From: Thermoplasmatota archaeon
GTDB lineage: Archaea; Thermoplasmatota; Penumbrarchaeia; Penumbrarchaeales; Penumbrarchaeaceae
Length of the DNA: 11,424 nt
Assembly (NCBI GenBank): GCA_965234725.1
Contig: CBDDUX010000102.1
Span: 1-11,424 of the forward strand
Direction of reading: 5' to 3'
Shown one piece after another: positions 1-11,424 of this stretch (the first letter of the stretch is position 1; every line of letters begins with the position of its first letter). The notes under the pieces were generated by a model, which worked only from the letters and a program-made list of their open reading frames with translations, made no database searches and was not told the origin of the DNA. The translations under genes and the position numbers were made by a program.

Positions 1-103
1 CGTCCAATTTCGGCAACGTTCATTTCGCTGTTCTCCTCGATCTTTCCTCCAATTCTTATAACACCTCATTCCCTTATGAAACTTGCCGTATTCGGCGAAA
101 AAT
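1..103. repeat. Imperfect hairpin element, copy A
   Basis: cggcaacgttcat (11-23) pairs with atgaaacttgccg (76-88) at 11/13 positions. Bases 1-21 match 1540-1560 at 17/21. Confidence 0.6.
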
Positions 104-110
104 GGAATCC

Positions 111-839
111 TCAATAAAAAAGACTTGCTGACATTGAATATTCACCTGATGCACCTAGTTCAACTATTATCACAACATGGACTCTATATATCGAACCCTC
201 TGGAGGTACAGGTGTGTCGTAATATGATTCATCAATTCTTATACCCCCTCGGATCTCTGTATGGGTTTGTCTGTAATACTCCTTATTGAATCCATCAGGA
301 TTGTTTGGATCATCTACAAATATGACTATCTCAAAATTACCAGTTGCACGTTTAACTTGAACATATGCATCCAAAATTGGTGCAAGGCGTCCAGGAAGGA
401 CATCACAAGTAATTTCAACTTCTCTACGACCACTTGACCCAATATCATTGATAATTGATCCTGTCTTTGATACATCAACCGGATGATTTCTGGCAGTAAT
501 GAGGTCGTAATCGAAACCATGTTGTGATCCTTTAGTTACATTTACTGTTATATTGTAGTTATAAGGTGATGTAAAAATATGTGTAATGTGGTCTCCATTC
601 TTGATTGTTCCATCACCCATATTCCAAGTAACATTAGCTCCATCAGGGCAATTTGCAATCCATAAATTAAAAGGTACATTGATTAATGGAGTTCCTTCAT
701 CAGATTTAATTTCCACATCCAATGGAGAAGTAGGATCCTCGTCATTACTATTTGAAATGATTATTATTGAAAATATAACTATCAAAGCGATGATGATTGC
801 TGATCCAATGATTATTATCTTACGCTTATTCAATTTCAA
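111..839 (-). CDS. Membrane-anchored PKD-domain surface protein
   Basis: Basic N-terminus followed by a long hydrophobic helix (KRKIIIIGSAIIIALIVIFSIIII), then a PKD signature (VTWNMGDG...ITHIFTSPYNYNITVNVT) and a beta-rich C-terminal domain. TTG start. Confidence 0.85.
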   Translation of the reverse strand: MKLNKRKIIIIGSAIIIALIVIFSIIIISNSNDEDPTSPLDVEIKSDEGTPLINVPFNLWIANCPDGANVTWNMGDGTIKNGDHITHIFTSPYNYNITVNVTKGSQHGFDYDLITARNHPVDVSKTGSIINDIGSSGRREVEITCDVLPGRLAPILDAYVQVKRATGNFEIVIFVDDPNNPDGFNKEYYRQTHTEIRGGIRIDESYYDTPVPPEGSIYRVHVVIIVELGASGEYSMSASLFY

Positions 840-906
840 CCCTTCTATCGATTTTCTTACTCCTCTTCTCTACATTTTTTAATTCTGGTCTTTAGGTCCA
901 GTTTTA

Positions 907-1485
907 CTATGATGCATGTGCTAGTACTTTCCAAGTACAATTACAATGAACTATATTCCCTCGATCCTCAATACTACCAAAGGATGTACCTATATCTGGT
1001 TGTTGATCTCCTGCAAACATTATTTCTGCTGAGATAACTATCGATCTTGCTCCTTCTAATCTTTTATTTTCGAAATCATCCATCGGGTAATTCACTATAA
1101 TTTCACCTTCTTGTCCCTGTGAGTTCTCACCATATCCTGATTCATGATATCCCATTTTATCATCCATATAAACCTGAACAGTATCTGGTTCGTTTGTGTA
1201 TGACCTTCTATTGGAGATATCATCTTCATCCTGCCAAGTTGCACGTACTGTGAATTCAATTAACACAGTTGACTCTTTCATGAAAATAGAAAGAATCTCC
1301 TTAGTTTGATCTTCTTCAATATATTCTTCACCTTCCATGTATAATATTTTTTCAATATATTTTGGTTCATTTATTTTCTCATTATTTGATTTTATACAAC
1401 CTTGCGAAGTTATAAGAAGGATTATCGGAACAATTAGAATAATCAGTTCATGAAATTTTTTTATTAAAGAAGTATTATAATTCAA
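907..1485 (-). CDS. Putative lipoprotein / exported beta-rich protein
   Basis: The track ORF is 907-1536. The in-frame TTG at 1485 is preferred because it has GGGGAG just upstream and gives KK + hydrophobic stretch + lipobox-like TSQG-C. The mature region is acidic. Confidence 0.75.
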   Translation of the reverse strand: MNYNTSLIKKFHELIILIVPIILLITSQGCIKSNNEKINEPKYIEKILYMEGEEYIEEDQTKEILSIFMKESTVLIEFTVRATWQDEDDISNRRSYTNEPDTVQVYMDDKMGYHESGYGENSQGQEGEIIVNYPMDDFENKRLEGARSIVISAEIMFAGDQQPDIGTSFGSIEDRGNIVHCNCTWKVLAHAS

Positions 1486-1525
1486 ATAATCTCCCCTTTT
1501 CCGAACATTATGTTCTGTCCTGAAA

Positions 1526-1583
1526 ATTTTTGCCAATTACGTCCAGTTGCGGAAACTTTCCTACTTCCGCCACAAGTCGGAAA
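1526..1583. repeat. Imperfect hairpin element, copy B
   Basis: cgtccagttgcggaaactttc (1540-1560) matches 1-21 at 17/21. Stem gcggaa (1549-1554)/ttccgc (1565-1570); alternative stem tttcctactt/aagtcggaaa (1557-1583, 9/10). Confidence 0.6.
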
Positions 1584-1892
1584 CGATTTTTCACCATTAA
1601 TAATTTATCTCCATTATGTGGGAGGGATATGGAATTGATTTTTTGCTGATGTTAAATCGACAATGAATGAGATAACCGAACCGTGTATCGATCATACTGA
1701 ATACTGATTAAATCAGTCCTCGTATGTGATATCCATAGGTGATGAAATAAAAAACATTTCTTTACTGAATAGGAATATATATGGCTCTTCAAAAATAATT
1801 TGAGGGTCAGGATGGACAGGATTATTGATAGTCTTGTTAAAAAAAATGACTTTTTCGGCCTTCATTTACAGACATATTACCTTGAAAAAAGT

Positions 1893-1931
1893 GGATTAGC
1901 CCAAAATATTTAGTGGGCCCGCCCGAGTCCA
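1893..1931 (+). repeat. 39-bp direct repeat, copy 1 (att-like)
   Basis: ggattagcccaaaatatttagtgggcccgcccgagtcca; 34/39 identical without gaps to 4692-4730; internal GCCCA...TGGGC inverted repeat. Confidence 0.85.
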
Positions 1932-1995
1932 CATAAAGTTCTTAATACGAGAAAAACTGACTTTAACCGCATTTAAGTTGGGAAAACTGATCTCT

Positions 1996-2011
1996 TAAAA
2001 ACGATTAAATA
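1996..2011 (+). promoter_or_regulatory. Archaeal BRE/TATA promoter of the Lrp/AsnC gene
   Basis: aaaaacg-attaaata ends about 28 nt before the ATG at 2040 (leaderless geometry). It is nearly identical to the motif upstream of tRNA-Thr. Confidence 0.7.
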
Positions 2012-2039
2012 TTTGCCATTGATTTGATTAACGAATATC

Positions 2040-2927
2040 ATGGATGAAATAGACATCAAGATCAGTTATGAACTGTATTTCAACGGGAGAATGCCATATC
2101 GAGAACTTGCTGATAAGATGGGGTTGTCCTCCATAGCTGTGCATAGAAGGGTTCAGAATCTGATGGATATCGGCATTATCAGAGGATTCAAAGCGGGTTT
2201 GGACCTCCATTCTATGATGGGGGTGTCTGTTGCAGTTTGCGGATCATCAAAGTTCGAGGATATTGAAAAGGTGCTGAAACTCCTTGAAGATGACGGAAGA
2301 ACATCCAAGATTATCAGATCACCAGGTGATTTCCTTTTCGTTGAAGGTGCTTTAAAAGACATCTCCCAACTTGACGGGTATTCAAGGAAGATTAAGGAAA
2401 TATGCGAAATGAAAGATCCCCGGATACTGATCCCGCACATGGTAAATTCCACACTTACGAAGGAAATCACCATTTCCGCTACTGATAAATCTATCGTTAG
2501 GTCTTTGAAAGACGATTGCAGGAAATCACTTTCAGAGGTAGCTGATGAACTGAACATAGCCACGAGAACCGTGAAAAGAAGATTAGACAGGTTATTGGAG
2601 AATGGTGCGATTTTTCTCCGAGCAGAGATGGTACCAACTGCCTCGGGGGATATCATCTCATTCATGTTCCTGCACCTAGAAGAGGATTCCGATAGAGATG
2701 TCATCGCCCACAGGATCTGGAAGGATAAATACCCTCATGTAATGAGCATGATACCTTTATCGAATGAACCGCGGCTACTAATTGCGAATTGCTGGGCAGG
2801 TTCCATGAAAGAGACCGAAGAGCTGAAGAAGGATATTCTATCAATATATCCCATCGACAGAATCAACCTCAACGTCCTCTATGACATGCACTTTCTGGAA
2901 ACCTGGCTGGACCGATCCATCCAATGA
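2040..2927 (+). CDS. Tandem Lrp/AsnC-family transcriptional regulator (two HTH+RAM units)
   Basis: Two AsnC-type HTHs: MDEIDIKISYELYFNGRMPYRELADKMGLSSIAVHRRVQNL and SATDKSIVRSLKDDCRKSLSEVADELNIATRTVKRRLDRL. Each is followed by a ferredoxin-like effector region. Confidence 0.92.
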   Translation: MDEIDIKISYELYFNGRMPYRELADKMGLSSIAVHRRVQNLMDIGIIRGFKAGLDLHSMMGVSVAVCGSSKFEDIEKVLKLLEDDGRTSKIIRSPGDFLFVEGALKDISQLDGYSRKIKEICEMKDPRILIPHMVNSTLTKEITISATDKSIVRSLKDDCRKSLSEVADELNIATRTVKRRLDRLLENGAIFLRAEMVPTASGDIISFMFLHLEEDSDRDVIAHRIWKDKYPHVMSMIPLSNEPRLLIANCWAGSMKETEELKKDILSIYPIDRINLNVLYDMHFLETWLDRSIQ

Positions 2928-3079
2928 TGTATTGTCTGGCTTCAAGATGGATGTTCGATCCATTAACAATAGGATTACGAAAATGGACAATAACCCATCA
3001 AATCCTGTCATTAATGAGAATTTTCCTGTTAACATGCTTCTTTATGCCACAAATGACAGTGGTATCCGGTGACAGAGAT

Positions 3080-3415
3080 ATGCCGAATAAAAAGATAATG
3101 AGGTATGGATCGGATGAATATGACCTTCAATACAGAGCCCCGGGGATCAGGATAGGTTCCTCATTACCAGAGGACATTGAGTCCTCTGAGGTGATATTGG
3201 AGGTGGACCTTTTTCTAGATGAGAATGGTGACCTGATTAATGAACTGAGATCTCTCCTCTCTAAGGTGGAAATTGCCCAGGGATCTGGATTTGGTATAAC
3301 AATGCATCAGGGATTCGGCCTGACATGTTCCAAGAGGTTGGATATCCATGTACTTAGGGAAGAGGTCCAACAGGTGATATCGACATTATCATCAATAAAG
3401 GTGGTCGAGAAATGA
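3080..3415 (+). CDS. Hypothetical protein (about 111 aa)
   Basis: The track ORF is 2924-3415. The ATG at 3080 is preferred because GGTGA lies at 3068-3072. The stop overlaps the next start (ATGA). Confidence 0.7.
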   Translation: MPNKKIMRYGSDEYDLQYRAPGIRIGSSLPEDIESSEVILEVDLFLDENGDLINELRSLLSKVEIAQGSGFGITMHQGFGLTCSKRLDIHVLREEVQQVISTLSSIKVVEK

Positions 3416-4089
3416 AGGTTGATCGGACCGATCTGAGGGTATTTTTCTGGCTGATCACAATCGCAGTCATCAGTCAGATGATGATCACACCGTTCCTTTG
3501 CAAAGATCCCCAATTATTGGTCAACTGGTTGGCCATTCCGATCTACGGGGGGCTTGGTTTTCTGGGAATGAAATTCTTCCTAAGAAGATCGGGATTCAAG
3601 GGGATGATAGACACCGGCAAAGGAGTTTCAAAACATCTATTACCGGTAATACTGGGAGTTGGATTTTCAGTGTTGGCAATTATTTTCGACCTTCTTTCCA
3701 CTGATAGGGTCCCTCAATTACCATTTCCGGTTTCCATCATGGCTTACATACCGATTGCGATCATGGACAACATGTTCTGGAAGCTGTTCCTGCTGACCAT
3801 GGTGGTCTTCCTGGTCTCCGAGAAACTGATGAAGGGAAGGAATCAGGAAGAAGTGTTCTGGTCTGCATCAGTGGTCTATTCGATCATTTACATACTGATC
3901 CAGTTCGGACAGTATACCACGCTTGTGGGAGAGGTCACCACTTTGACCGTGTTACAGATCCTTCTGGTATCTGGAGGTTTCATCATCTCCTCATGCTTGA
4001 TGTTCAGAAGATACGGTTTTCTGGCACCTGTTCTGATGCATATCACCCAGTACCTGATCTATCATGGTCTCTACGGAGGATTATCCTAG
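3412..4089 (+). CDS. Multi-pass membrane protein, CPBP/Abi (CAAX protease)-like, degenerate
   Basis: Multiple hydrophobic helices and a C-terminal RRYGFLAPVLMH motif typical of CPBP proteins. The EExxxR position reads DNMFWK. Confidence 0.7.
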   Translation: MKVDRTDLRVFFWLITIAVISQMMITPFLCKDPQLLVNWLAIPIYGGLGFLGMKFFLRRSGFKGMIDTGKGVSKHLLPVILGVGFSVLAIIFDLLSTDRVPQLPFPVSIMAYIPIAIMDNMFWKLFLLTMVVFLVSEKLMKGRNQEEVFWSASVVYSIIYILIQFGQYTTLVGEVTTLTVLQILLVSGGFIISSCLMFRRYGFLAPVLMHITQYLIYHGLYGGLS

Positions 4090-4105
4090 GACGGGAGTGA
4101 TTGAA

Positions 4106-4528
4106 ATGATTGCAAAGAAAGAGAAAGCACTAATGTCATTTGATATAGACATAAAGAATAGGACCATCTGGGAATGGGCGAACGCGCATACATCCCTTGC
4201 CAAACCATTGCACCGATACGAAGGAGAGATCATTCTCGAGGAGGATAGGATTATTTTCCAAGGGATTAATAAACAAAGCAAGAAAAATTTCGAGAAGGTC
4301 GTAATAAAGGATGCCATAACCGGAATAAAAATGGGATTTGATCGGATTTTCAAAAGAACGGAGGACAGATCTCTAGGGCTCGCTTTCAAACCTCTTAGGA
4401 TCTCTTTCATGGAAAATGGGAAGATCAGAATGATGTATCTCATTATCTCGTTCAGTCCACTTCGTAGGTCCAGTAACAATCAGGAATGGTGTAACACCTT
4501 GATCAGATGGAAGAAAAACGAGAGTTAA
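4106..4528 (+). CDS. Hypothetical protein, PH/GRAM-like fold candidate
   Basis: ATG at 4106 follows GGAGTGA. YEGEIILEEDRIIFQG resembles the G-x-L-x-L-x-x-x-R-hydrophobic-F pattern of PH-like domains, and the protein ends in a Trp-containing helix (QEWCNTL). Confidence 0.65.
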   Translation: MIAKKEKALMSFDIDIKNRTIWEWANAHTSLAKPLHRYEGEIILEEDRIIFQGINKQSKKNFEKVVIKDAITGIKMGFDRIFKRTEDRSLGLAFKPLRISFMENGKIRMMYLIISFSPLRRSSNNQEWCNTLIRWKKNES

Positions 4529-4545
4529 TATTAGGATTTATGGAT

Positions 4546-4566
4546 TTTTTACCTCTTCTTTTTTTT
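4546..4566 (+). terminator. Oligo-T archaeal terminator
   Basis: tttttacctcttctttttttt shortly after the stop at 4528. Confidence 0.55.
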
Positions 4567-4599
4567 AACTGATCAAATTGGACTTTAACTAAAAATAGA

Positions 4600-4620
4600 G
4601 TGGGCCCGCCTAGATTTGAA
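4600..4620 (-). repeat. tRNA 3'-half fragment (att scar)
   Basis: Minus strand TTCAAAT-CTAGG-CGGGCCC-A-C corresponds to T-loop + 5-nt T-stem + 7-nt acceptor strand + discriminator, followed by TCTATTTTT. No 5' half is present. Confidence 0.75.
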
Positions 4621-4691
4621 TTGTATAATTATTGCTTGTCAAGAGTGATTATTTCTACTTACAAATATTTATACATTTCTTAAAAAAATCA

Positions 4692-4730
4692 GGGTTAGCC
4701 CAAAATGTTTGGTGGGCCAGGCCGAGTCCA
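4692..4730 (+). repeat. 39-bp direct repeat, copy 2 (att-like)
   Basis: gggttagcccaaaatgtttggtgggccaggccgagtcca; 34/39 identical to 1893-1931. Confidence 0.85.
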
Positions 4731-4796
4731 GATCAGATCATGTTTAGTTCTTTATTTTCCTTGGTAACTTATAAATGGCTTCAATAATAAATAGGC

Positions 4797-4839
4797 GAAG
4801 CCCCTTGCGACGCATTGAAAGGGGCTTCTTTTTCTTCTT
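4797..4839 (+). terminator. GC-rich hairpin plus T-tract (intrinsic-terminator-like)
   Basis: Perfect 10-bp stem gaagcccctt/aaggggcttc with a 12-nt loop, followed by tttttcttctt. Confidence 0.55.
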
Positions 4840-5254
4840 GGTCCGGACCGCTTCCATCCGACATCCGCTCGGAAATCTTTTCTTGAAAAGGGGTTTTTCG
4901 GGACTATTTTTGATATTAATACCATTATCGCTTAAACCCCGATCAACATTTTTTTATAGTGATGTCCGACACTAAACCCCTTGATTTGCGATACAATTGA
5001 GATCGATCGTGACAGTAATTCTGTCATGTTCCAAAATGAAATTCATTCGACATATAGATTTATACATATCGAATGAATTTTCATTGGCCTGCAGACCAGA
5101 TTTTATGCTTTAGCATAAAATCGGTTAATTGATGGCTCATGAACAAATCATGTCATTTAAATAGGATGGAGGGAAAATAGAAGTGATTTTTGCATCAGAT
5201 TCACTGCATATGTATATTTCTACATATCCGATCAATGATTGTTGTGAAATAAAA

Positions 5255-5282
5255 ATGGGATATAACTAAAGTTACATATATA
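5255..5282. other. dif-like 11-6-11 tyrosine-recombinase site
   Basis: ATGGGATATAA-CTAAAG-TTACATATATA, with the inner TAA-N6-TTA register of Xer/dif sites. Confidence 0.5.
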
Positions 5283-5400
5283 GATTTTACAAATGTAATT
5301 AATTTATTATCTGGCGGTGTCAAATTATGTATATTCTTCTAATTTGAAAGGGGTTTTTGGCTTTGGGATTTTAGCAATGTGTACTTTTCTACATATCTCA

Positions 5401-5940
5401 TCACTGGTCATCGGATGGGAGGGGATACTTCAGTTTCGGATACTTCGATCTGCCCATAGAAGATTCTTCTTCCTTTCTCTTTTTGATCTCTTCCTCTGAG
5501 GGTGTTCCGTTGATGTAATCCGTTATGTACTTGGTGATTTCCTTGGATCTTACCTTGAAGGTGTCCGAGTGATAACGAAGGTGGAAATTCGGAATTCCTT
5601 CAGTGTCAAATCTTGCCACTGATACCTTCTCGGAGAATATTATTTCCTTGTCCTTATCCCACCGCTTGAATACCTTCTTCGGATCATAGATCCTGACCTT
5701 GGTGAGCTGGTCTCCGACCTCCATGAAACAGTAGCCCAATGTGGGATCCTTGGGATCTATGGAGATGAGCATCAGGGTACCCGTGACCTCTTCGTGATCC
5801 TTCAGTTCATGGATCACTATCTCGTCCTGGATATTCTCGTAATTCTCGAAGAAATCTGTGTACTTCCTCTCAAGGAGCTTCAGTGAAGAGACGTAAATAT
5901 GGAGGTCACCCACTCTGTCAAGCTTGTTGACATCTATCAT
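5401..5940 (-). CDS. Hypothetical protein (179 aa)
   Basis: ATG-initiated ORF with protein-like composition; no family recognised. Confidence 0.75.
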   Translation of the reverse strand: MIDVNKLDRVGDLHIYVSSLKLLERKYTDFFENYENIQDEIVIHELKDHEEVTGTLMLISIDPKDPTLGYCFMEVGDQLTKVRIYDPKKVFKRWDKDKEIIFSEKVSVARFDTEGIPNFHLRYHSDTFKVRSKEITKYITDYINGTPSEEEIKKRKEEESSMGRSKYPKLKYPLPSDDQ

Positions 5941-6021
5941 AGATCGGGCATGGACGCAGAGTTACTTATCTTTTAGTGCTGCCAAGAAAATATATACCTC
6001 CAATAAACTATATTAAAATGG

Positions 6022-6741
6022 GTGAAGGGAATGAAGTTAATATTCGATCCTCAGGAGGAAATGGATTTCAAACGGATATACCATCAAGAATATAACAATA
6101 TAATCTGTGATGCATTGAAAACATATGAGAAAATAAAATCTTGGATAGAATCCAACAATGATATGAAAAATTATTATGCAATAAAATTCTATAAGGGTAC
6201 GATTTCATTCAGATTGAATAATTCGAGGGAAATGACATTTGATATCACTTTATACGAAGATAATTTTTTCATTTCTATCAGCGAAAAGTTACTTGAATTA
6301 ATTGAGTTTAAACTGGATAGGGAAAATATAAAATTCAAGTCATTTCTTGTCAAAGAAAAAGATCAATTTATGATGAATAATTTCAATAAGTTGGTTTTCG
6401 ATATCGTTCATAAATCATTGACTTCAGATATTCTTTTAAAGAACGATGATTGGTCAAATCGATTAAGAAGAGATATGAGAAAGAAGGCTAATGCAAAATT
6501 CTATGAAGGTGAATACTATGATTTCCTAAGAGAGGAAACGGATTTCTCCGACACAGAAGAAGGAATTCATCAATATATCAGAGAAGTTGAAACCTACATA
6601 AGATTGCATATCAAACAATATCCTGTCAGTCCAGAGTATTTAAAAGAAAATGTAAGATTGTTCTACCATAAAAAGACTGTTGAATCTGTTCTACGCAATA
6701 TCGAAAAATATGTACCCTTTTACATCAAGAAGTATCATTGA
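6022..6741 (+). CDS. Hypothetical protein (about 239 aa; start may be ATG 6031)
   Basis: Long AT-rich ORF divergent from 5401-5940, with TATA-like motifs at about 5987-6018; no family recognised. Confidence 0.75.
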   Translation: MKGMKLIFDPQEEMDFKRIYHQEYNNIICDALKTYEKIKSWIESNNDMKNYYAIKFYKGTISFRLNNSREMTFDITLYEDNFFISISEKLLELIEFKLDRENIKFKSFLVKEKDQFMMNNFNKLVFDIVHKSLTSDILLKNDDWSNRLRRDMRKKANAKFYEGEYYDFLREETDFSDTEEGIHQYIREVETYIRLHIKQYPVSPEYLKENVRLFYHKKTVESVLRNIEKYVPFYIKKYH

Positions 6742-6774
6742 TTAATTTTTATACCATCCAGGTTTCTTTTCTGA

Positions 6775-7707
6775 TCATAGGTTAAACCTCGGGATATGCT
6801 CCAGGTAAGACCTTTTAAGCTCTTCAGGTGTTATGTGATTATAGATGTCGATTGTCTCGGTCCTTGAGTCTCCTCTGAGTTCCTTGACATAATCCCTAGG
6901 CATTCCAGAGTTCAATAATTCTGTTGTGAAGAAGTGTCTGAAGCAGTGTGCTGTGAACCTTTTTTCGAGTTCCTGGGTATCGGGATCATGAATACCCGAC
7001 TCTGTAGCATATTTCTTTAGTCTCTTGTTCAGGATCGTATGGGACATCCTGTGCCCAACATCAGTGACAAATAGGGCTCTCTCACCTTTGTTGGCCCTTT
7101 CATCCCTTATACTCATCCAGGTTTCGATTAGTCTCCTTGTCTCAAGATCGAAGTAGACATCCATGTTCTTGCGTTTTCCTGTAGCCTTGATGGATATGGT
7201 CATCTCTTCAAGGGAAACATCCTCAAGATCAATGGATAATAGCTCCTGAGCCCTGAGACCGGTCTTTGCGAGCAGGGTATACATTGCCCGATCCTGAGGA
7301 TCTAGAATCATTCCTACGAATACTCTCATTTTCGGAAGATCGATTATCTGTCTCTTTTGCCCCTTTTTACCTGTCCTGTAGTTGTTTGATATATATCGTC
7401 GTCTGAACTTGGGGATCGGAGATTTGACAATATAGTCCTCGTCCTCTATATATTCATAGAACGAAGCTAGATTATTGATGTGCTTTCTGATGGTCTCCGA
7501 GGACACCTCTCCGTTCCTTCCCTTTCTGTTCTTGATATCCTTCAGGTACTGCTTCAGGTCATGCTGGTCGATATCTACAAATGACTTATCCTTGATGCAT
7601 TCCCTGAAGATCTTCAAAGTATACTTGCATCCCCGGGTCGTCCAATTGCTCCATCCTCGAAGCTCAACATCGTCGAAGAATTCCTCCTCCAGTGAATCGT
7701 TATCCAA
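6775..7707 (-). CDS. Tyrosine recombinase/integrase (XerC/D-like), full length
   Basis: N-terminal core-binding region (SSETIRKHINNLASFYEYI...SPI). Catalytic motifs TGLRAQEL, ATGK, HCFRH, LRGD (in place of LGH) and IYNH. Confidence 0.95.
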   Translation of the reverse strand: MDNDSLEEEFFDDVELRGWSNWTTRGCKYTLKIFRECIKDKSFVDIDQHDLKQYLKDIKNRKGRNGEVSSETIRKHINNLASFYEYIEDEDYIVKSPIPKFRRRYISNNYRTGKKGQKRQIIDLPKMRVFVGMILDPQDRAMYTLLAKTGLRAQELLSIDLEDVSLEEMTISIKATGKRKNMDVYFDLETRRLIETWMSIRDERANKGERALFVTDVGHRMSHTILNKRLKKYATESGIHDPDTQELEKRFTAHCFRHFFTTELLNSGMPRDYVKELRGDSRTETIDIYNHITPEELKRSYLEHIPRFNL

Positions 7708-8221
7708 CCCACTTCCACCCCCTTTTTGTATACTTGATCAGGCCGTATCCTTTCAACGCTTCCAGTTGATTCCTGATACCATTGACCGCTTCAGTATCCG
7801 TAGGATCCACCCCCAATAAAGAAAGGATATTATGGTTTGGGACCGGATTTTTAGACTCCTTCAGTAATCCTGTGAGGTCCTTGTTGAACATTCTATAGCC
7901 ATCACCGGTCTCTTCAAAGGAGATATGTTGTGCTCTCTTCATGTCATGTTCCAGGATCTCGATAAACTTTTCATGCCTCTTGTTCTGGATCTTAAGAACA
8001 CGATTTTCTTCCTTGAGAGCATTATTCTCTTTCGTCAAGGTCTCCTTTGCTTCTAACTGCTTCATCAGGTTTCCCATGATCCTTGCTTCAACCGTTTCGA
8101 TGATGAACTTGGAAAGAGAGGTTTTTTTCTCCTTCGCATACTTCTGCCACCTCTCCTTTTGCCCTTCTGTAACTAGGTAGACCTCGACCTTTCTTTTCTT
8201 GATTGTTTCGGTCTTTCCCAT
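7700..8221 (-). CDS. DNA-binding partner of the integrase: RHH-like N-terminus, coiled coil, wHTH-like C-terminus
   Basis: KVEVYL...QKERWQKYAKEKKTSLSKFIIETVE (ribbon-helix-helix pattern), a heptad region (LTKENNALKEENRVLK) and LEALKGYGLIKYTKRGWKW. Overlaps the integrase gene by 8 nt. Confidence 0.8.
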   Translation of the reverse strand: MGKTETIKKRKVEVYLVTEGQKERWQKYAKEKKTSLSKFIIETVEARIMGNLMKQLEAKETLTKENNALKEENRVLKIQNKRHEKFIEILEHDMKRAQHISFEETGDGYRMFNKDLTGLLKESKNPVPNHNILSLLGVDPTDTEAVNGIRNQLEALKGYGLIKYTKRGWKWVG

Positions 8222-8271
8222 GGACTCCGATCTACTTACTGGCCTAAATATATTTGCATGTAAAAAAAAGG

Positions 8272-8345
8272 AGCCACCGAGGGGATTCGGACCCCCGACC
8301 TTCTGATTACGAATCAGACGCTCTACCAGGCTAAGCTACGGTGGC
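8272..8345 (-). tRNA. tRNA-Thr(CGT)
   Basis: GCCACCG/CGGTGGC acceptor stem, D-arm GCTT-AGCCTGGTA-GAGC, anticodon arm TCTGA-TT CGT AA-TCAGA, T-arm GGGGG-TCCGAAT-CCCCT, U73. No CCA; T8 terminator at 8262-8269. Confidence 0.96.
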
Positions 8346-8372
8346 ATTTTTTGAGCTGATAGTGGATAATGA

Positions 8373-8454: not shown

Positions 8455-9717
8455 CTATGTTTCTTCTTCCGGGTCCTCTTCAATGGAATGGAACATCTCC
8501 CTGGACCTCTTGAGAGCGGTAAGGACAGGCATCTCCTTTCCAGAAAGGTAATTGATAAGGGCCCCTCCACCTGTTGAGACATGATCGATCCCTTTCATCT
8601 TCAGATCCTTGATGACCTGGGTCGTCTCACCTCCGCCCATTACGGAGTAACCATCCGAATCGTTGATGGCCTTGAATATCTCGATGGTCCCCTCGGAGAA
8701 TTCTGGTATCTCGTACACTCCTGCAGGTCCGTTCGCTATAATCGTTTTCGCTTCCTTGATCATTATTGAATACCTGGCGATCGTATCGATGGAGATGTCA
8801 TAGATAGGGAACTCGGTTGGAAGCTGGGATAGATGTACTCTTTCCCTCTCTCCATCCTTGTTCACAGCCATATCGGTGGGATAGAATATCTTTCCACGGT
8901 TATCTGCGATCATGTTCTTGCATCTCTCAATGAGTTCATCAGCGTCAGGAAGTTCCGATCTGATGAAATTGATATTGGGTGTTCCCAGATCGTATCCGTC
9001 CGCCCACTGGAACATTGAACCAACGACACCAACGGTCAGGAGCTTGTCAATTATCCCGTTTCCAAGCAAATTCTCAGCTACCTTGATGGAATCATCAACT
9101 TTCAGACCACCTAGGATCGCTATACAGGGCCTTTCCGGAGATTCGGTAACCTTGGCAAGGGCCTTTAATTCCTTTTCCATCAACGGACCTGCTCCGCTTG
9201 GTTTGATCTGGCAGAAACCGACAAGAGAGGGCTGCGACCTATGAACAGCTGAAAATGCATCATTAATGAAGAAGTCGGATACCTCCGCGAGTGTCTTTAC
9301 AATATGACTGTTCTCCTGGGTGACTATCGGGGCATCATTTAGTACAACATCCTCGGAATAGAACCTGGTGTTCTCAAGAAGGATGATCTCTCCCACCTTC
9401 ATGGACCTGATGGCTTCCACTGCTCTGTTGTGAAAAAGACTGTCGATATATTTCACGTCCCTTTCCAGGAGGTCGGAGAGGACCTTCGCATGCTCATTCA
9501 AGCTCACGAAATCCTTCTTTCCGGGACGGCTCTGATGGGCTAAGAGTACCAGTTTGCAGGGAGGGAACCTCTTGATGGAACTGGCATGCTCTTCGATCCT
9601 CTTTAGGGAAAGTATCTCTCCCGTATCAGGATTGATAGGAGAGTTGATGTCCACTCTCATCAGGACCGTTTTATCCTCGAGATCCAGATCGTCGATGGTA
9701 TTGAACGGCAGGACCAT
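8455..9717 (-). CDS. pgk: Phosphoglycerate kinase
   Basis: Motifs RVDINSP, AHQSRPG, LLENTRF, NDAFSAVHRSQPS, ILGGLKVDD, NGPAGVYE, GGGET and HVSTGGGA. The ATG at 9717 is preferred over the GTG at 9741 because BRE/TATA aaaactttaaa lies at 9750-9760. Confidence 0.98.
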   Translation of the reverse strand: MVLPFNTIDDLDLEDKTVLMRVDINSPINPDTGEILSLKRIEEHASSIKRFPPCKLVLLAHQSRPGKKDFVSLNEHAKVLSDLLERDVKYIDSLFHNRAVEAIRSMKVGEIILLENTRFYSEDVVLNDAPIVTQENSHIVKTLAEVSDFFINDAFSAVHRSQPSLVGFCQIKPSGAGPLMEKELKALAKVTESPERPCIAILGGLKVDDSIKVAENLLGNGIIDKLLTVGVVGSMFQWADGYDLGTPNINFIRSELPDADELIERCKNMIADNRGKIFYPTDMAVNKDGERERVHLSQLPTEFPIYDISIDTIARYSIMIKEAKTIIANGPAGVYEIPEFSEGTIEIFKAINDSDGYSVMGGGETTQVIKDLKMKGIDHVSTGGGALINYLSGKEMPVLTALKRSREMFHSIEEDPEEET

Positions 9718-9879
9718 TGGGAAGCACCGTGGTTTAATCACAGGTCTCCTTTAAAGTTTTTCCTCGAAGTGGCTCAGAAGGGAATTTGAAGGACCAAAAT
9801 ATGATTTTATTTCATAGTTGATTTGGAAACGTTAATATTTGAAGCAAGTTTATGGTGAACTGCAATACGGGGGCAGTCC

Positions 9880-11238
9880 ATGGCCAAATACCCAATAATG
9901 GTGGAGTACAGCTATGATCTCAAGGAGAATCTAGCCAGAAGGACGATCGCCCTTTTTATTGACCTTTTCATTGTCGGGATCCCGGTTTTCATCTTGTATG
10001 TCTTTTTCGGCCTGGGTGTTCTCCAGGCAAATCCAATGACGGTCCTTCTGGGCCTGATCGGACCTTTCTTCTATAAACAGCAGGTCCAGGGAGTTCAGGA
10101 GACCACTCCTTTCCTTTCCATGCTCGTGATGGTCATATTCCAGTCATTCCTGCTTCCCATCTACTATTCCTGGAGGGAATCCAACTCGAGGAGGACCGTT
10201 GGAAAATACTTGATGCATCTTGATCCCATCAGGAAAGATGGTATGTTCCCGACCAGGTGGGACGCCCTCCAGAGGAACTACATCAAATACATTGCTGGAG
10301 CCCTTGGTGCATATACGTTCGGTATCCTGGGTTGGTTCTTGTTCATCGGTGTGGCAAGTCTGATCGACCTCAAAGTGGCTCCTGAATACAAACTGGATAT
10401 CAGACAGAGGATCACAGAGGTCCCCTTCGGAACTGCAGTCCTGGTAGAGGACCCAAAGGTTGGATTGGGAAAGATCTCCATTGATGGCGGAAAATGGGCC
10501 AAGCTCAAGGATAAGGAGAAGAAGGCCAAGAAATTCGCCAAAAGGCTGAAGAAGGAAGAGAAAGCCACCCACAAAATGGAGATCGTCAACACCAAGTCCG
10601 CAATAAAGAAGGAGAAGATCAGAGAAACATTGGGAAAGTCCCATGAGAAGAACCTGTCCCTGATCCATGAGGCCGAAGAGGAAGTAAAAAGTGACCATCA
10701 CGAAAAGAAAGGGCACACACTCCTTGGAACGCCTTCCAAACCGAAGAAGGAGAAGGTACTTCTTGGCAAGGAAAAGGATGAGGATGAGATCGAAGAAGAC
10801 CTTGAGATAGATCTATCATCCGAGCCAGAGACAGAGAAGAAAGCGGAAGGGATGGAACTTTCAGCTCCCAAGAAGATAGAGAAGAAGCAAGAACAAGAAG
10901 AGGAAGCTCCAGAAGAGGAAAAAGAGGAAAAGGTATCCTTCTTCAAGAAATTATTCGGTGGATTCGGGAAGAAACATGAGGCGGAAACCGAAGAGAAAAA
11001 GGAGACAACAATCCTTGGATCCGGACTCCCTTCACTCAAAAAGGATGCTAAGAAAGATGAGACCATTCTCCAGTTCATGATGGACTTTGATATCGATGAG
11101 AAGAGGGCAGAGGGCCTCTATGGAATGGGATACAGAAGAAAAGAGGACCTGATCGATGCCATTCCCCAGGACCTGATGATAATCGAGGGCATGAATCCCA
11201 CCATCGCCAAGAGGATTATTTCAAGGGCCAGTAAGTGA
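9880..11238 (+). CDS. RDD-family membrane protein with charged linker and C-terminal helix-hairpin-helix domain
   Basis: RDD-type motifs LARRTIALFID, RTVGKYLMHL and RNYIK; a long K/E-rich region; C-terminal KRAEGLYGMGY...DLMIIEGMNPTIAKRII (HhH). Confidence 0.8.
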   Translation: MAKYPIMVEYSYDLKENLARRTIALFIDLFIVGIPVFILYVFFGLGVLQANPMTVLLGLIGPFFYKQQVQGVQETTPFLSMLVMVIFQSFLLPIYYSWRESNSRRTVGKYLMHLDPIRKDGMFPTRWDALQRNYIKYIAGALGAYTFGILGWFLFIGVASLIDLKVAPEYKLDIRQRITEVPFGTAVLVEDPKVGLGKISIDGGKWAKLKDKEKKAKKFAKRLKKEEKATHKMEIVNTKSAIKKEKIRETLGKSHEKNLSLIHEAEEEVKSDHHEKKGHTLLGTPSKPKKEKVLLGKEKDEDEIEEDLEIDLSSEPETEKKAEGMELSAPKKIEKKQEQEEEAPEEEKEEKVSFFKKLFGGFGKKHEAETEEKKETTILGSGLPSLKKDAKKDETILQFMMDFDIDEKRAEGLYGMGYRRKEDLIDAIPQDLMIIEGMNPTIAKRIISRASK

Positions 11239-11326: not shown

Positions 11327-11400
11327 GGGCCGGTAGATCAGTTCGGTAGATCGCTTGCTTCGCAAGCAAGAGGCCTCGGGTTCAAATCCCGACCGGTCCA
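11327..11400 (+). tRNA. tRNA-Ala(CGC)
   Basis: GGGCCGG/CCGGTCC acceptor stem with G3:U70, GATC/GATC D-stem, CTTGC-TT CGC AA-GCAAG anticodon arm, TCGGG-TTCAAAT-CCCGA T-arm, A73. Confidence 0.97.
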
Positions 11401-11424
11401 CTCCTATTTTGGTTTAGAACCATA

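Follow-up and report, generated by a model that had tools for sequence, protein, structure and literature searches.

The stretch of DNA analysed here, the window, is the whole of contig C102 (11,424 bp) of G000, a 3.54-Mb archaeal metagenome-assembled genome (MAG) in 114 contigs. An earlier note, made from the letters alone, had described a tyrosine recombinase with a ribbon-helix-helix (RHH) partner and proposed it as the head of a candidate non-IntI locus that accumulates cassettes. Both genes are present on the minus strand, the recombinase int310 at 6775–7707 and the partner rhh173 at 7700–8221, with an overlap of 8 nt. What the note had missed is a tRNA-Thr(CGT) gene at 8270–8345, also on the minus strand, which was found by ARAGORN and scores 66.7 bits with Rfam, and its discovery alters how the locus is read. 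The 3′ end of this tRNA and the start of the partner gene, which runs in the same direction, are 48 nt apart. The 48-nt spacer between them (8222–8269, minus strand) consists of a T-run and then an AT-rich, TATA-like stretch before the partner gene, a composition that points to a putative promoter for the partner; similar spacers follow tRNA-Thr(GGT) on contig C44 and tRNA-Thr(TGT) on contig C20 of the same genome.

Comparison with relatives of the same genus places a boundary at the tRNA. Homology with G004 (91% over 2896 nt) and G003 (76% over 3188 nt) runs across the phosphoglycerate kinase gene (8455–9741, minus strand) and the tRNA, and then ends at window positions 8264–8266. A DNA search with positions 1–8269 against the four same-genus genomes (G001–G004) returned only two non-coding repeats and two short, weak matches. 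The locus thus has DNA that is absent from close relatives with its breakpoint at a tRNA, and a tyrosine integrase gene adjacent to the 3′ end of that tRNA, whose last 15 nt differ at two positions from those of the integrase-less relatives G004 and G003. The tRNA-Thr(GGT) site of G004 is empty: about 100 bp past the tRNA begins a sequence that is homologous to the final stretch of G000 contig C67, and this contig stops 49 bp later. From the breakpoint in G003 and G004 and this empty site, it follows that strain-specific island DNA lies behind both tRNA-Thr genes of G000. We take the 3′ end of tRNA-Thr(CGT) to be the island boundary and, presumably, its attachment site. Positions 1–8269 are, in our judgement, probably the tRNA-proximal part of a strain-specific genomic island at this 3′ end, made up of accreted and reshuffled remnants.

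The arrangement recurs within the genome. On C44, behind tRNA-Thr(GGT), there is a second copy of the partner, the integrase and a third gene, o179 (82–85% nucleotide and 84–87% amino acid identity); at the end of C20, behind tRNA-Thr(TGT), there is a partner gene that is 49% identical; and at the end of C75, behind tRNA-Pro(CGG), an open reading frame (ORF) opens with MGKNGTSK, comparable to the MGKTETIK of the partner. Among 41 related genomes, five have homologues of int310 (E ≤ 1e-20); the four same-genus genomes have none. The order tRNA, partner, integrase holds at all eight loci with int310 homologues, where the tRNAs are Thr(CGT), Thr(GGT), Leu(CAA), Leu(GAG), Ser(GGA) and Ser(TGA).

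A profile of the partner family found matches in 38 of 401 genomes of the phylum Thermoplasmatota, in 26 of its 162 genera. At the 30 loci of this phylum sample, an integrase lies just downstream in every case (gap of −7 to +56 nt) and a tRNA just upstream in 27, of which 26 were detected by ARAGORN (3′ end 50–216 nt upstream) and one, cut by the contig end, by Rfam. Among species representatives of all archaea, 29 loci were found, with a tRNA upstream in 18 and an integrase downstream in 20; of the nine loci lacking an integrase, six end within 37 nt of the match and three are partial partner matches. These loci come from MAGs labelled Thermoplasmata, Bathyarchaeia, Hadesarchaea, Methanophagales, Archaeoglobi, Methanosarcinales, Methanocellales, Halobacteriales and Thorarchaeota. 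Integrase copies within a genome or genus are closer to each other (85–94%; C102 and C44 85%, G015 and G005 92%, the G039 pair 92%, the G037 pair 93.5%) than those at the same tRNA in a different genus (68%). Such identities would fit either concerted evolution or a spread, within a lineage, from one isoacceptor tRNA to another. In both G039 copies (L037, about 9900–10020, and L038), six to seven 12-nt iterons (GGTGCCTAGGGR) stand directly behind the integrase gene and are possible protein-binding arm sites.

The integrase has 310 residues, with a Phage_integrase domain (Pfam PF00589, 8.2e-28, residues 138–295) and a SAM-like N domain (PF13495, residues 8–92). Because the core-binding and catalytic domains alone fill this length and leave no arm-binding domain, int310 is a ‘simple’ (Xer-like) tyrosine recombinase, in the sense given in a passage of PMC8138268. 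R152, H254, R257 and Y289 are invariant in all eight aligned sequences, and the protein aligns to the catalytic domains of XerD and XerA. Of the curated models, XerA_Arch of NCBIfam (NF040815) fits it best, at 162.8 bits and below the cut-off of 220; the integron integrase model TIGR02249 gave 54.8 bits against a cut-off of 265, over residues 219–293 only, and NF011946 gave 26.2 bits against 435. The earlier observation that the enzyme shows no obvious IntI-specific insertion agrees with these scores, and int310 is a tRNA-targeting, Xer-like simple integrase that is neither IntI nor, by the curated cut-offs, XerA. In a phage collection it found matches at only 22–27%, to integrases of bacterial phages, with no haloarchaeal or other archaeal virus among the best 15 of the 69 matches. 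A viral origin was considered and rejected, with no relatives of int310 or the partner confirmed on IMG/VR contigs and no match to the partner in the phage collection.

The AT-rich non-coding DNA downstream of the recombinase and o179 (5049–5397) contains the cluster of palindromes that had been reported there, three sites of the form CATATGTA-N6-TACATATC at 5049–5070, 5207–5228 and 5376–5397, together with a perfect hairpin of 11-nt arms at 5099–5122. The palindromes gave six strand-hits at up to three mismatches against 0.12 expected, a count that none of 200 shuffles reached. A stricter scan of the genome (7-nt arms, at most one mismatch per arm) gave 17 matches, of which only those at window positions 5208 and 5377 are non-degenerate; the remaining 15 are degenerate and scattered over other contigs. 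The corresponding stretch behind the module on C44 has no such palindromes, and so they do not belong to what is conserved in the module.

With their inverted arms and 6-nt spacer, these sites could be read as dif-like and int310 as a chromosome dimer resolvase of the XerA type. XerA is the best curated match of int310, no ORF of G000 scores higher, and none passes the XerA model. Moreover, the genomes of family f1 that have int310 (G000, G005 and G015) lack the XerA-like gene of about 170–230 bits that is present in seven genomes devoid of int310, although this comparison involves incomplete MAGs and small numbers. We nevertheless consider a resolvase very improbable. Besides its score below the XerA cut-off, int310 does not behave as a housekeeping gene, which would be broadly conserved and present in a single copy: G000 has two copies, each behind a tRNA, and homologues in only five of the 41 relatives. 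The three palindromes lie within 350 bp, with none at the paralogous copy. What int310 has in common with archaeal XerA (NF040815; PDB 5hxy) is the two-domain architecture and the catalytic residues, whereas its sub-threshold score, its multiple copies, its patchy distribution, its link to tRNAs and its dedicated partner set it apart.

The partner, rhh173, is a protein of 173 residues with no family match in Pfam, PHROG, NCBIfam or PADLOC. Of its 28 homologues, 26 have 173–183 residues, and none is named. An AlphaFold2 model built from 21 sequences, with a predicted local distance difference test (pLDDT) score of 80, displays a helix at residues 19–31, a 68-residue helix at 36–103, and three helices with a β-hairpin at 114–171. 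The best Foldseek matches are winged-helix regulators (NiaR, LexA and MarR-type); they are weak (E ≥ 8.7e-3) and support, but do not prove, the prediction that the C-terminal domain is a winged helix. The RHH assignment of the N-terminus derives from the N-terminal pattern and from sub-threshold matches of the partner family to RHH-type Pfam models (RHH_5 in four of 21 sequences, NikA-like in five of 21). The predicted protein is therefore composed of an RHH-like N-terminus with a strand and helices, a long coiled coil and a C-terminal winged helix, and it matches no curated family.

This predicted composition recalls SNJ2, from the haloarchaeal pleolipoviruses. In the passages of PMC5861418 that concern it, SNJ2 has a 14-bp core in tRNA-Met, and its integrase requires for integration two co-transcribed, overlapping small genes, Orf2 and Orf3, with a coiled coil and a MarR-like winged helix. 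As far as those passages go, the two systems share an archaeal tyrosine integrase that targets a tRNA through a short core (a 15-nt repeat in G037, below) and overlapping genes with a coiled-coil and winged helix-turn-helix accessory, the fold of which is here a predicted one. They differ in that the coiled coil, the winged helix and an RHH segment are here fused in one protein of 173 residues, which precedes the integrase behind the tRNA, and in that the integrase is Xer-like, with Int-SNJ2 compared by its description in that source only. By this analogy, rhh173 looks like the two SNJ2 proteins fused, with an RHH segment added, and it may work as the SNJ2 accessory proteins do.

A complete element bounded by tRNA tails is present in a relative. 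The tRNA-Ser(GGA) gene of G037:C29 has, 13.4 kb behind it and in the same orientation, a 15-nt copy of its tail (15 of 16 nt), for which our own estimate of the chance expectation is about 2.5e-4. The DNA between the two encodes the partner, the integrase and a small ORF and, on the opposite strand, three large genes: one for a UvrD-type helicase with a PD-(D/E)XK nuclease, one for a DNA methylase and one for a ResIII-type helicase. The whole is an ordinary integrative element that carries cargo between its two tails.

Tails of this kind are also found elsewhere in G000 and in its genus. Three copies of the tRNA-Thr(TGT) type on G000 C25 (1888, 2790 and 3004) look as if they mark the far end of the island that begins on C20; in C25:1888–3018 they bound a cassette of about 900 bp with two ORFs and a gene-less unit of about 200 nt. 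In G004, tail-bounded inserts follow tRNA-Thr(CGT). At this locus (G004:C15), a gene-less unit of about 130 bp downstream of the tRNA closes in a 23-nt tail copy, and a degenerate tail (CTCCGGTGGCTC) closes an 8.8-kb island right before the conserved flank. Upstream of the intact tRNA there is a partial 5′ copy of the tRNA and two direct repeat units of about 150 nt (L014, 5560–6310). The end motif of the mini-cassettes of G003 and G004 has no copy in G000.

Farther from the tRNA, the window contains a block of four genes on the plus strand (2040–4528) that encode a double AsnC/Lrp-type helix-turn-helix regulator (2040–2927; Pfam HTH_24 and HTH_AsnC), o163 (2924–3415), a 225-residue membrane protein (3412–4089) and o154 (4064–4528); only the first has a Pfam family match. 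As had been claimed, direct repeats flank the block: 1883–1934 (D1a) and 4682–4735 (D1c) match over 52 nt at 83%, and a third, weaker copy (71%) lies at 4570–4610, within D1b (4570–4620). All three are on the minus strand and co-oriented with tRNA-Thr(CGT). Each contains a copy of a tRNA 3′ tail. That of D1c (4713–4724) is 12 nt long, and its reverse complement, CGGCCTGGCCCA, is identical to the last 12 nt of the tRNA(CAT) on C58, a tRNA-Met. That of D1b (4601–4620) matches the tRNA-Pro(TGG) tail TTCAAATCCGGGCGGGCCCA at 18 of 20 nt, T-loop included. The D1a tail, CGGGCGGGCCCA (1914–1925), is the dodecamer of the Pro type and differs from the CAT type by two changes. A shared, conserved AT-rich motif of about 25 nt follows the tail in both D1a and D1c, and between the D1c and D1b tails lies a gene-less unit of 107 nt (4620–4713). 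D1a forms the left bound of the block and stands at the head of the minus-strand genes that run leftwards. It was also tried as a decayed junction of tail, promoter and partner gene, and this was ruled out, since the alignment displays AT-richness only and no homology.

The D1 unit is found beyond the window as well. On G003:C31 it occurs twice in a co-oriented array that opens at a real tRNA-Met(CAT), along with a bare tail copy; orphan copies are present in G004 and G001; and on G000 C72 two copies, 22.4 kb apart, end a repeat of about 145 nt. Because the D1 repeats are tRNA 3′ tails and are arrayed behind a real tRNA-Met(CAT) in G003, the four-gene block is bounded by att-type scars, and the suggestion that its repeats are recombination sites stands in the sense that they are remnants of such sites. 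The block itself is absent from G001–G004, and one of 23 other genomes of the family, G018, has it in the same order, with amino acid identities of 62, 32, 63 and 54%. The block moves as a unit. Its flanks in G018 map to two different contigs of G000, with no clean empty site.

The D1 repeats might instead be promoter or regulatory motifs in which a tRNA-like dodecamer arose by chance, so that the block would be an ordinary operon with a duplicated control region. They do contain a TATA-like AT-rich stretch, they are conserved across the genus, and on C72 D1 ends the repeat of about 145 nt ahead of a giant gene; a 12-nt match to some tRNA tail is, moreover, not rare genome-wide. We think this unlikely. 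A chance dodecamer does not account for the 18 of 20 nt that D1b shares with the tRNA-Pro tail through the T-loop, nor for the G003 array, which starts from a real tRNA-Met(CAT) and has further bare tail copies between its units. The common orientation of all three window copies with tRNA-Thr also counts against it, and D1c and D1b are directed at the 3′ end of a convergent gene, where a promoter would be poorly placed.

Several observations weigh against an accreted island at tRNA-Thr(CGT), the reading that we prefer. One is that a distal end marked by the tail was not found. A second copy of the tRNA-Thr(CGT) tail is absent from the window (15-nt scan, up to three mismatches), no 11-mer of 8225–8360 recurs in 1–8200, and no 22–23-mer of the tail occurs in the genome at up to three mismatches, the tRNAs themselves aside. 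The assembly has no convincing copy elsewhere: the best, on C69, has one mismatch in 15 nt, with a chance expectation of about 0.3 by our own estimate. The distal direct repeat of the tRNA 3′ fragment is thus found neither in the window nor, convincingly, in the assembly, although the contig may stop before it, and consequently the far end of the element is undefined and its mobility only putative. A 48-nt match on C32 was also considered as an att site and ruled out, as it is an intron-bearing tRNA-Lys; this tRNA-Lys(TTT) gene (C32:4140–4250) has its intron in the D-arm region and was missed by ARAGORN in its default run.

Other points of the same kind concern the module and the block. Behind the tRNAs of G039, no tail copy turned up over about 30 kb on G039:C5 or about 11.6 kb on G039:C1, and contigs of the probable source run of G000 contain no circle junction, although contigs cannot reveal rare forms. 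The partner–integrase module was not found on the viral contigs of IMG/VR. The rule of an upstream tRNA is not absolute, with no detectable tRNA at 11 of the 29 loci in the wider scan and at three of the 30 in the phylum scan. The unit duplicated within genomes comprises only the tRNA, the partner, the integrase and about 290 nt, and gene conversion among resident modules could also have produced this. The four-gene block of G018 has no D1-type repeats beside it. Finally, the tails that bound the block come from tRNAs other than the adjacent tRNA-Thr, which simple tandem accretion does not predict; they may have arrived by reshuffling between islands, or by the capture of a whole att-flanked remnant.

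Some of these points would suit a resident capture platform, a sharper form of the earlier proposal, in which a partner–integrase pair fixed at the tRNA captures and stacks tail-bounded cassettes and gene-less mini-cassettes by way of tRNA tails, heterologous ones among them, much as integrons employ attC and attI. The module alone is what is duplicated within genomes, the distal Thr tail was not found, heterologous tails occur in one island, tail-bounded cassettes and mini-cassettes are common in the genus, and the window has its own gene-less unit of 107 nt between two tails. We regard such a platform as quite unlikely. G003 and G004 carry mini-cassettes, yet have no partner or integrase of the rhh173 and int310 families; the partner abuts the tRNA at 27 of the 30 phylum loci, and so no new DNA has entered at the integrase-proximal site; the G037 element, at 13.4 kb, is an ordinary tail-bounded one; and the insertion of o239 (below) does not break at a tail. 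We give similarly low credence to the proposal that the partner and integrase form a pan-archaeal, tRNA-anchored recombination system which, in addition to moving its own element, mobilises in trans the tail-bounded cassettes and gene-less mini-cassettes that accumulate behind tRNA genes in these archaea and have no enzyme of their own, including those with the tails of other tRNAs. If that were true, the pair would be the missing enzyme of the mini-cassettes and a functional analogue of the integron, built on tRNA tails.

The likeness to integrons lies in a tyrosine recombinase beside gene blocks that are bounded by repeated sites. Here, however, the sites are tRNA tails and not attC hairpins, and the promoter side of the integrase faces a tRNA, not a cassette array. 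Because the partner gene abuts the tRNA, cassettes are not added beside the integrase as they are at attI. The integron-like platform of the earlier note is not supported. The module sits directly behind the tRNA here and in most relatives, which is the arrangement of tRNA-targeting integrases that the note itself had named as known; the tails around the four-gene block belong to tRNAs other than the adjacent one, the palindromes do not recur at the C44 paralogue, and the insertion of o239 breaks at none of the proposed sites. Its more general view, that the region was built in pieces and its accessory DNA acquired piecewise, survives, and the fallback it offered, decayed insertions at a hotspot, fits better than a cassette platform. 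The locus is best read as a patchwork built from old insertions, and not as a collector of genes in the manner of integrons.

Between the integrase and the palindromes lie two further genes, which had been proposed as a two-gene module between related hairpins. The hairpins concerned (5376–5397 and 6760–6789) are unrelated in sequence. The first gene, o179 (5401–5940, minus strand), is the third gene of the Thr-type module, with a copy in the same position behind the integrase on C44 (84% identical) and in G015 (57%). It has no family match and only three protein clusters in a large database; its AlphaFold2 model is poor (pLDDT 44), with a weak lead to an OB-fold in the atlas (0.87). The second, o239 (6022–6741, plus strand), has no family or atlas match. 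It is carried by a single-gene insertion of low GC content (5978–6778, 29%), the only indel relative to the C44 paralogue, and is absent from that copy and from G015. Where the proposed module breakpoints had been expected at the paired sites, this indel breaks at none of them.

Also missed earlier was a dispersed intergenic repeat of about 170 nt (4790–4960, plus strand) with a terminator-like hairpin, a T-run and a conserved core. G000 has ten copies on five contigs, co-oriented within each contig and often between or ahead of very large genes. Further copies occur in G001 (two), G003 (one) and G004 (one); since all three genomes lack int310 and rhh173, the repeat is not a private site of int310. 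As a structured RNA or a member of a known family it was rejected, with nothing found in Rfam, a consensus structure that is weak past the first hairpin, and pair changes that support this hairpin only. Its core was not found on IMG/VR contigs. The very large genes lie at G000 C44:9079–19420 and C72:18211–29431 and encode proteins of 2122, 869, 2144 and 1422 residues, 42–43% identical in pairs. What separates them is this repeat in the case of C44 and, in that of C72, the 145-nt repeat that ends in D1; the C44 array reaches the integrase module.

The repeat bears on the assembly of the window. Logan unitigs from the probable source run break at 4815–4844, 5282–5314 and 5912–5940. The first break coincides with the longest exact run (30 nt) common to the window and the C44 copy of the repeat, and a unitig joint that steps back 104 sits within the repeat. 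Reads, or an assembler with longer words, can bridge the break at 4815–4844; an alternative join there would place the left part again behind a tRNA-Thr module. A further run, X2, contains little of this sequence, and no claim here draws on it.

The remainder of the window lies at its two ends. On the left, a block on the minus strand (111–1865) comprises a 50-residue ORF, o209 (907–1536) and a secreted protein with a PKD domain by Pfam (111–839), and it was not found in G001–G004. Both this contig and C72 open with a similar 85-nt stretch (window 11–96 and C72:11–95; 78% identity), and the sequence there suggests that a repeat broke the assembly at the left end; one Logan unitig extends 409 nt past it. 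On the right, beyond the kinase, are a gene for an RDD/HhH protein (9880–11238, plus strand) and tRNA-Ala(CGC) (11327–11401, plus strand), and the contig ends 23 nt past the latter (11327–11424). In G004, tRNA-Ala(CGC) is followed by units of about 170–180 nt with copies on G000 C28 and C38.

In the accreted island that we favour, the leading edge, from 8269 to about 5400, would be an integration module consisting of int310, its overlapping partner and then, in the Thr-type lineage, o179. The integrase, in a copy that may be active, would exchange strands in a core of about 15 nt in the tRNA 3′ tail; the element would supply a new tail and carry the integrase inward-facing at the tRNA end. The partner would provide in trans the DNA-bending or arm-binding function and the directionality that a two-domain integrase lacks, a role for which Orf2 and Orf3 of SNJ2 are the experimental precedent. 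The farther pieces, namely o239, the four-gene block with its att-type scars and the left block, would be remnants of other tRNA-targeting elements that were gathered by tandem accretion and later reshuffled between islands, not by integron-like capture. Remnants flanked by att sites, resembling cis-mobilisable elements (CIMEs), are presumably a parallel to these pieces.

An integrase-led island at a tRNA gene is a kind of locus that is already known. The tycheposons of Prochlorococcus, as selected passages of their description (bioRxiv 10.1101/2020.12.28.424599) present them, are bacterial, have hallmark replication genes of their own and an integrase of a different lineage, and those passages do not describe a partner with RHH, coiled-coil and winged helix-turn-helix parts; tycheposon islands there keep snippets of their own tRNA, whereas here the tails of other tRNAs lie behind tRNA-Thr. 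For integrated elements of archaea, passages of PMC8371274 report tandem integration at one locus, loss of the integrase and recombination that yields mosaics. The tandem elements in those passages share a target, and mixed tRNA tails in one island are not described in them. The partner–integrase module, which is widespread in archaea, is apparently an undescribed variant; a search of the literature in listings and selected passages found no description of it.

The order tRNA, partner, integrase provides a simple marker for integrated elements and their cargo in uncultured archaea, and one relative carries a restriction and helicase set in such an element (G037:C29). The module is also a test case for the way in which a separate protein confers site choice and directionality on two-domain, Xer-like recombinases. 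Finally, the tails of several tRNAs in one island point to an exchange of pieces between tRNA-anchored islands, which bears on the flexible gene pools of these archaea.

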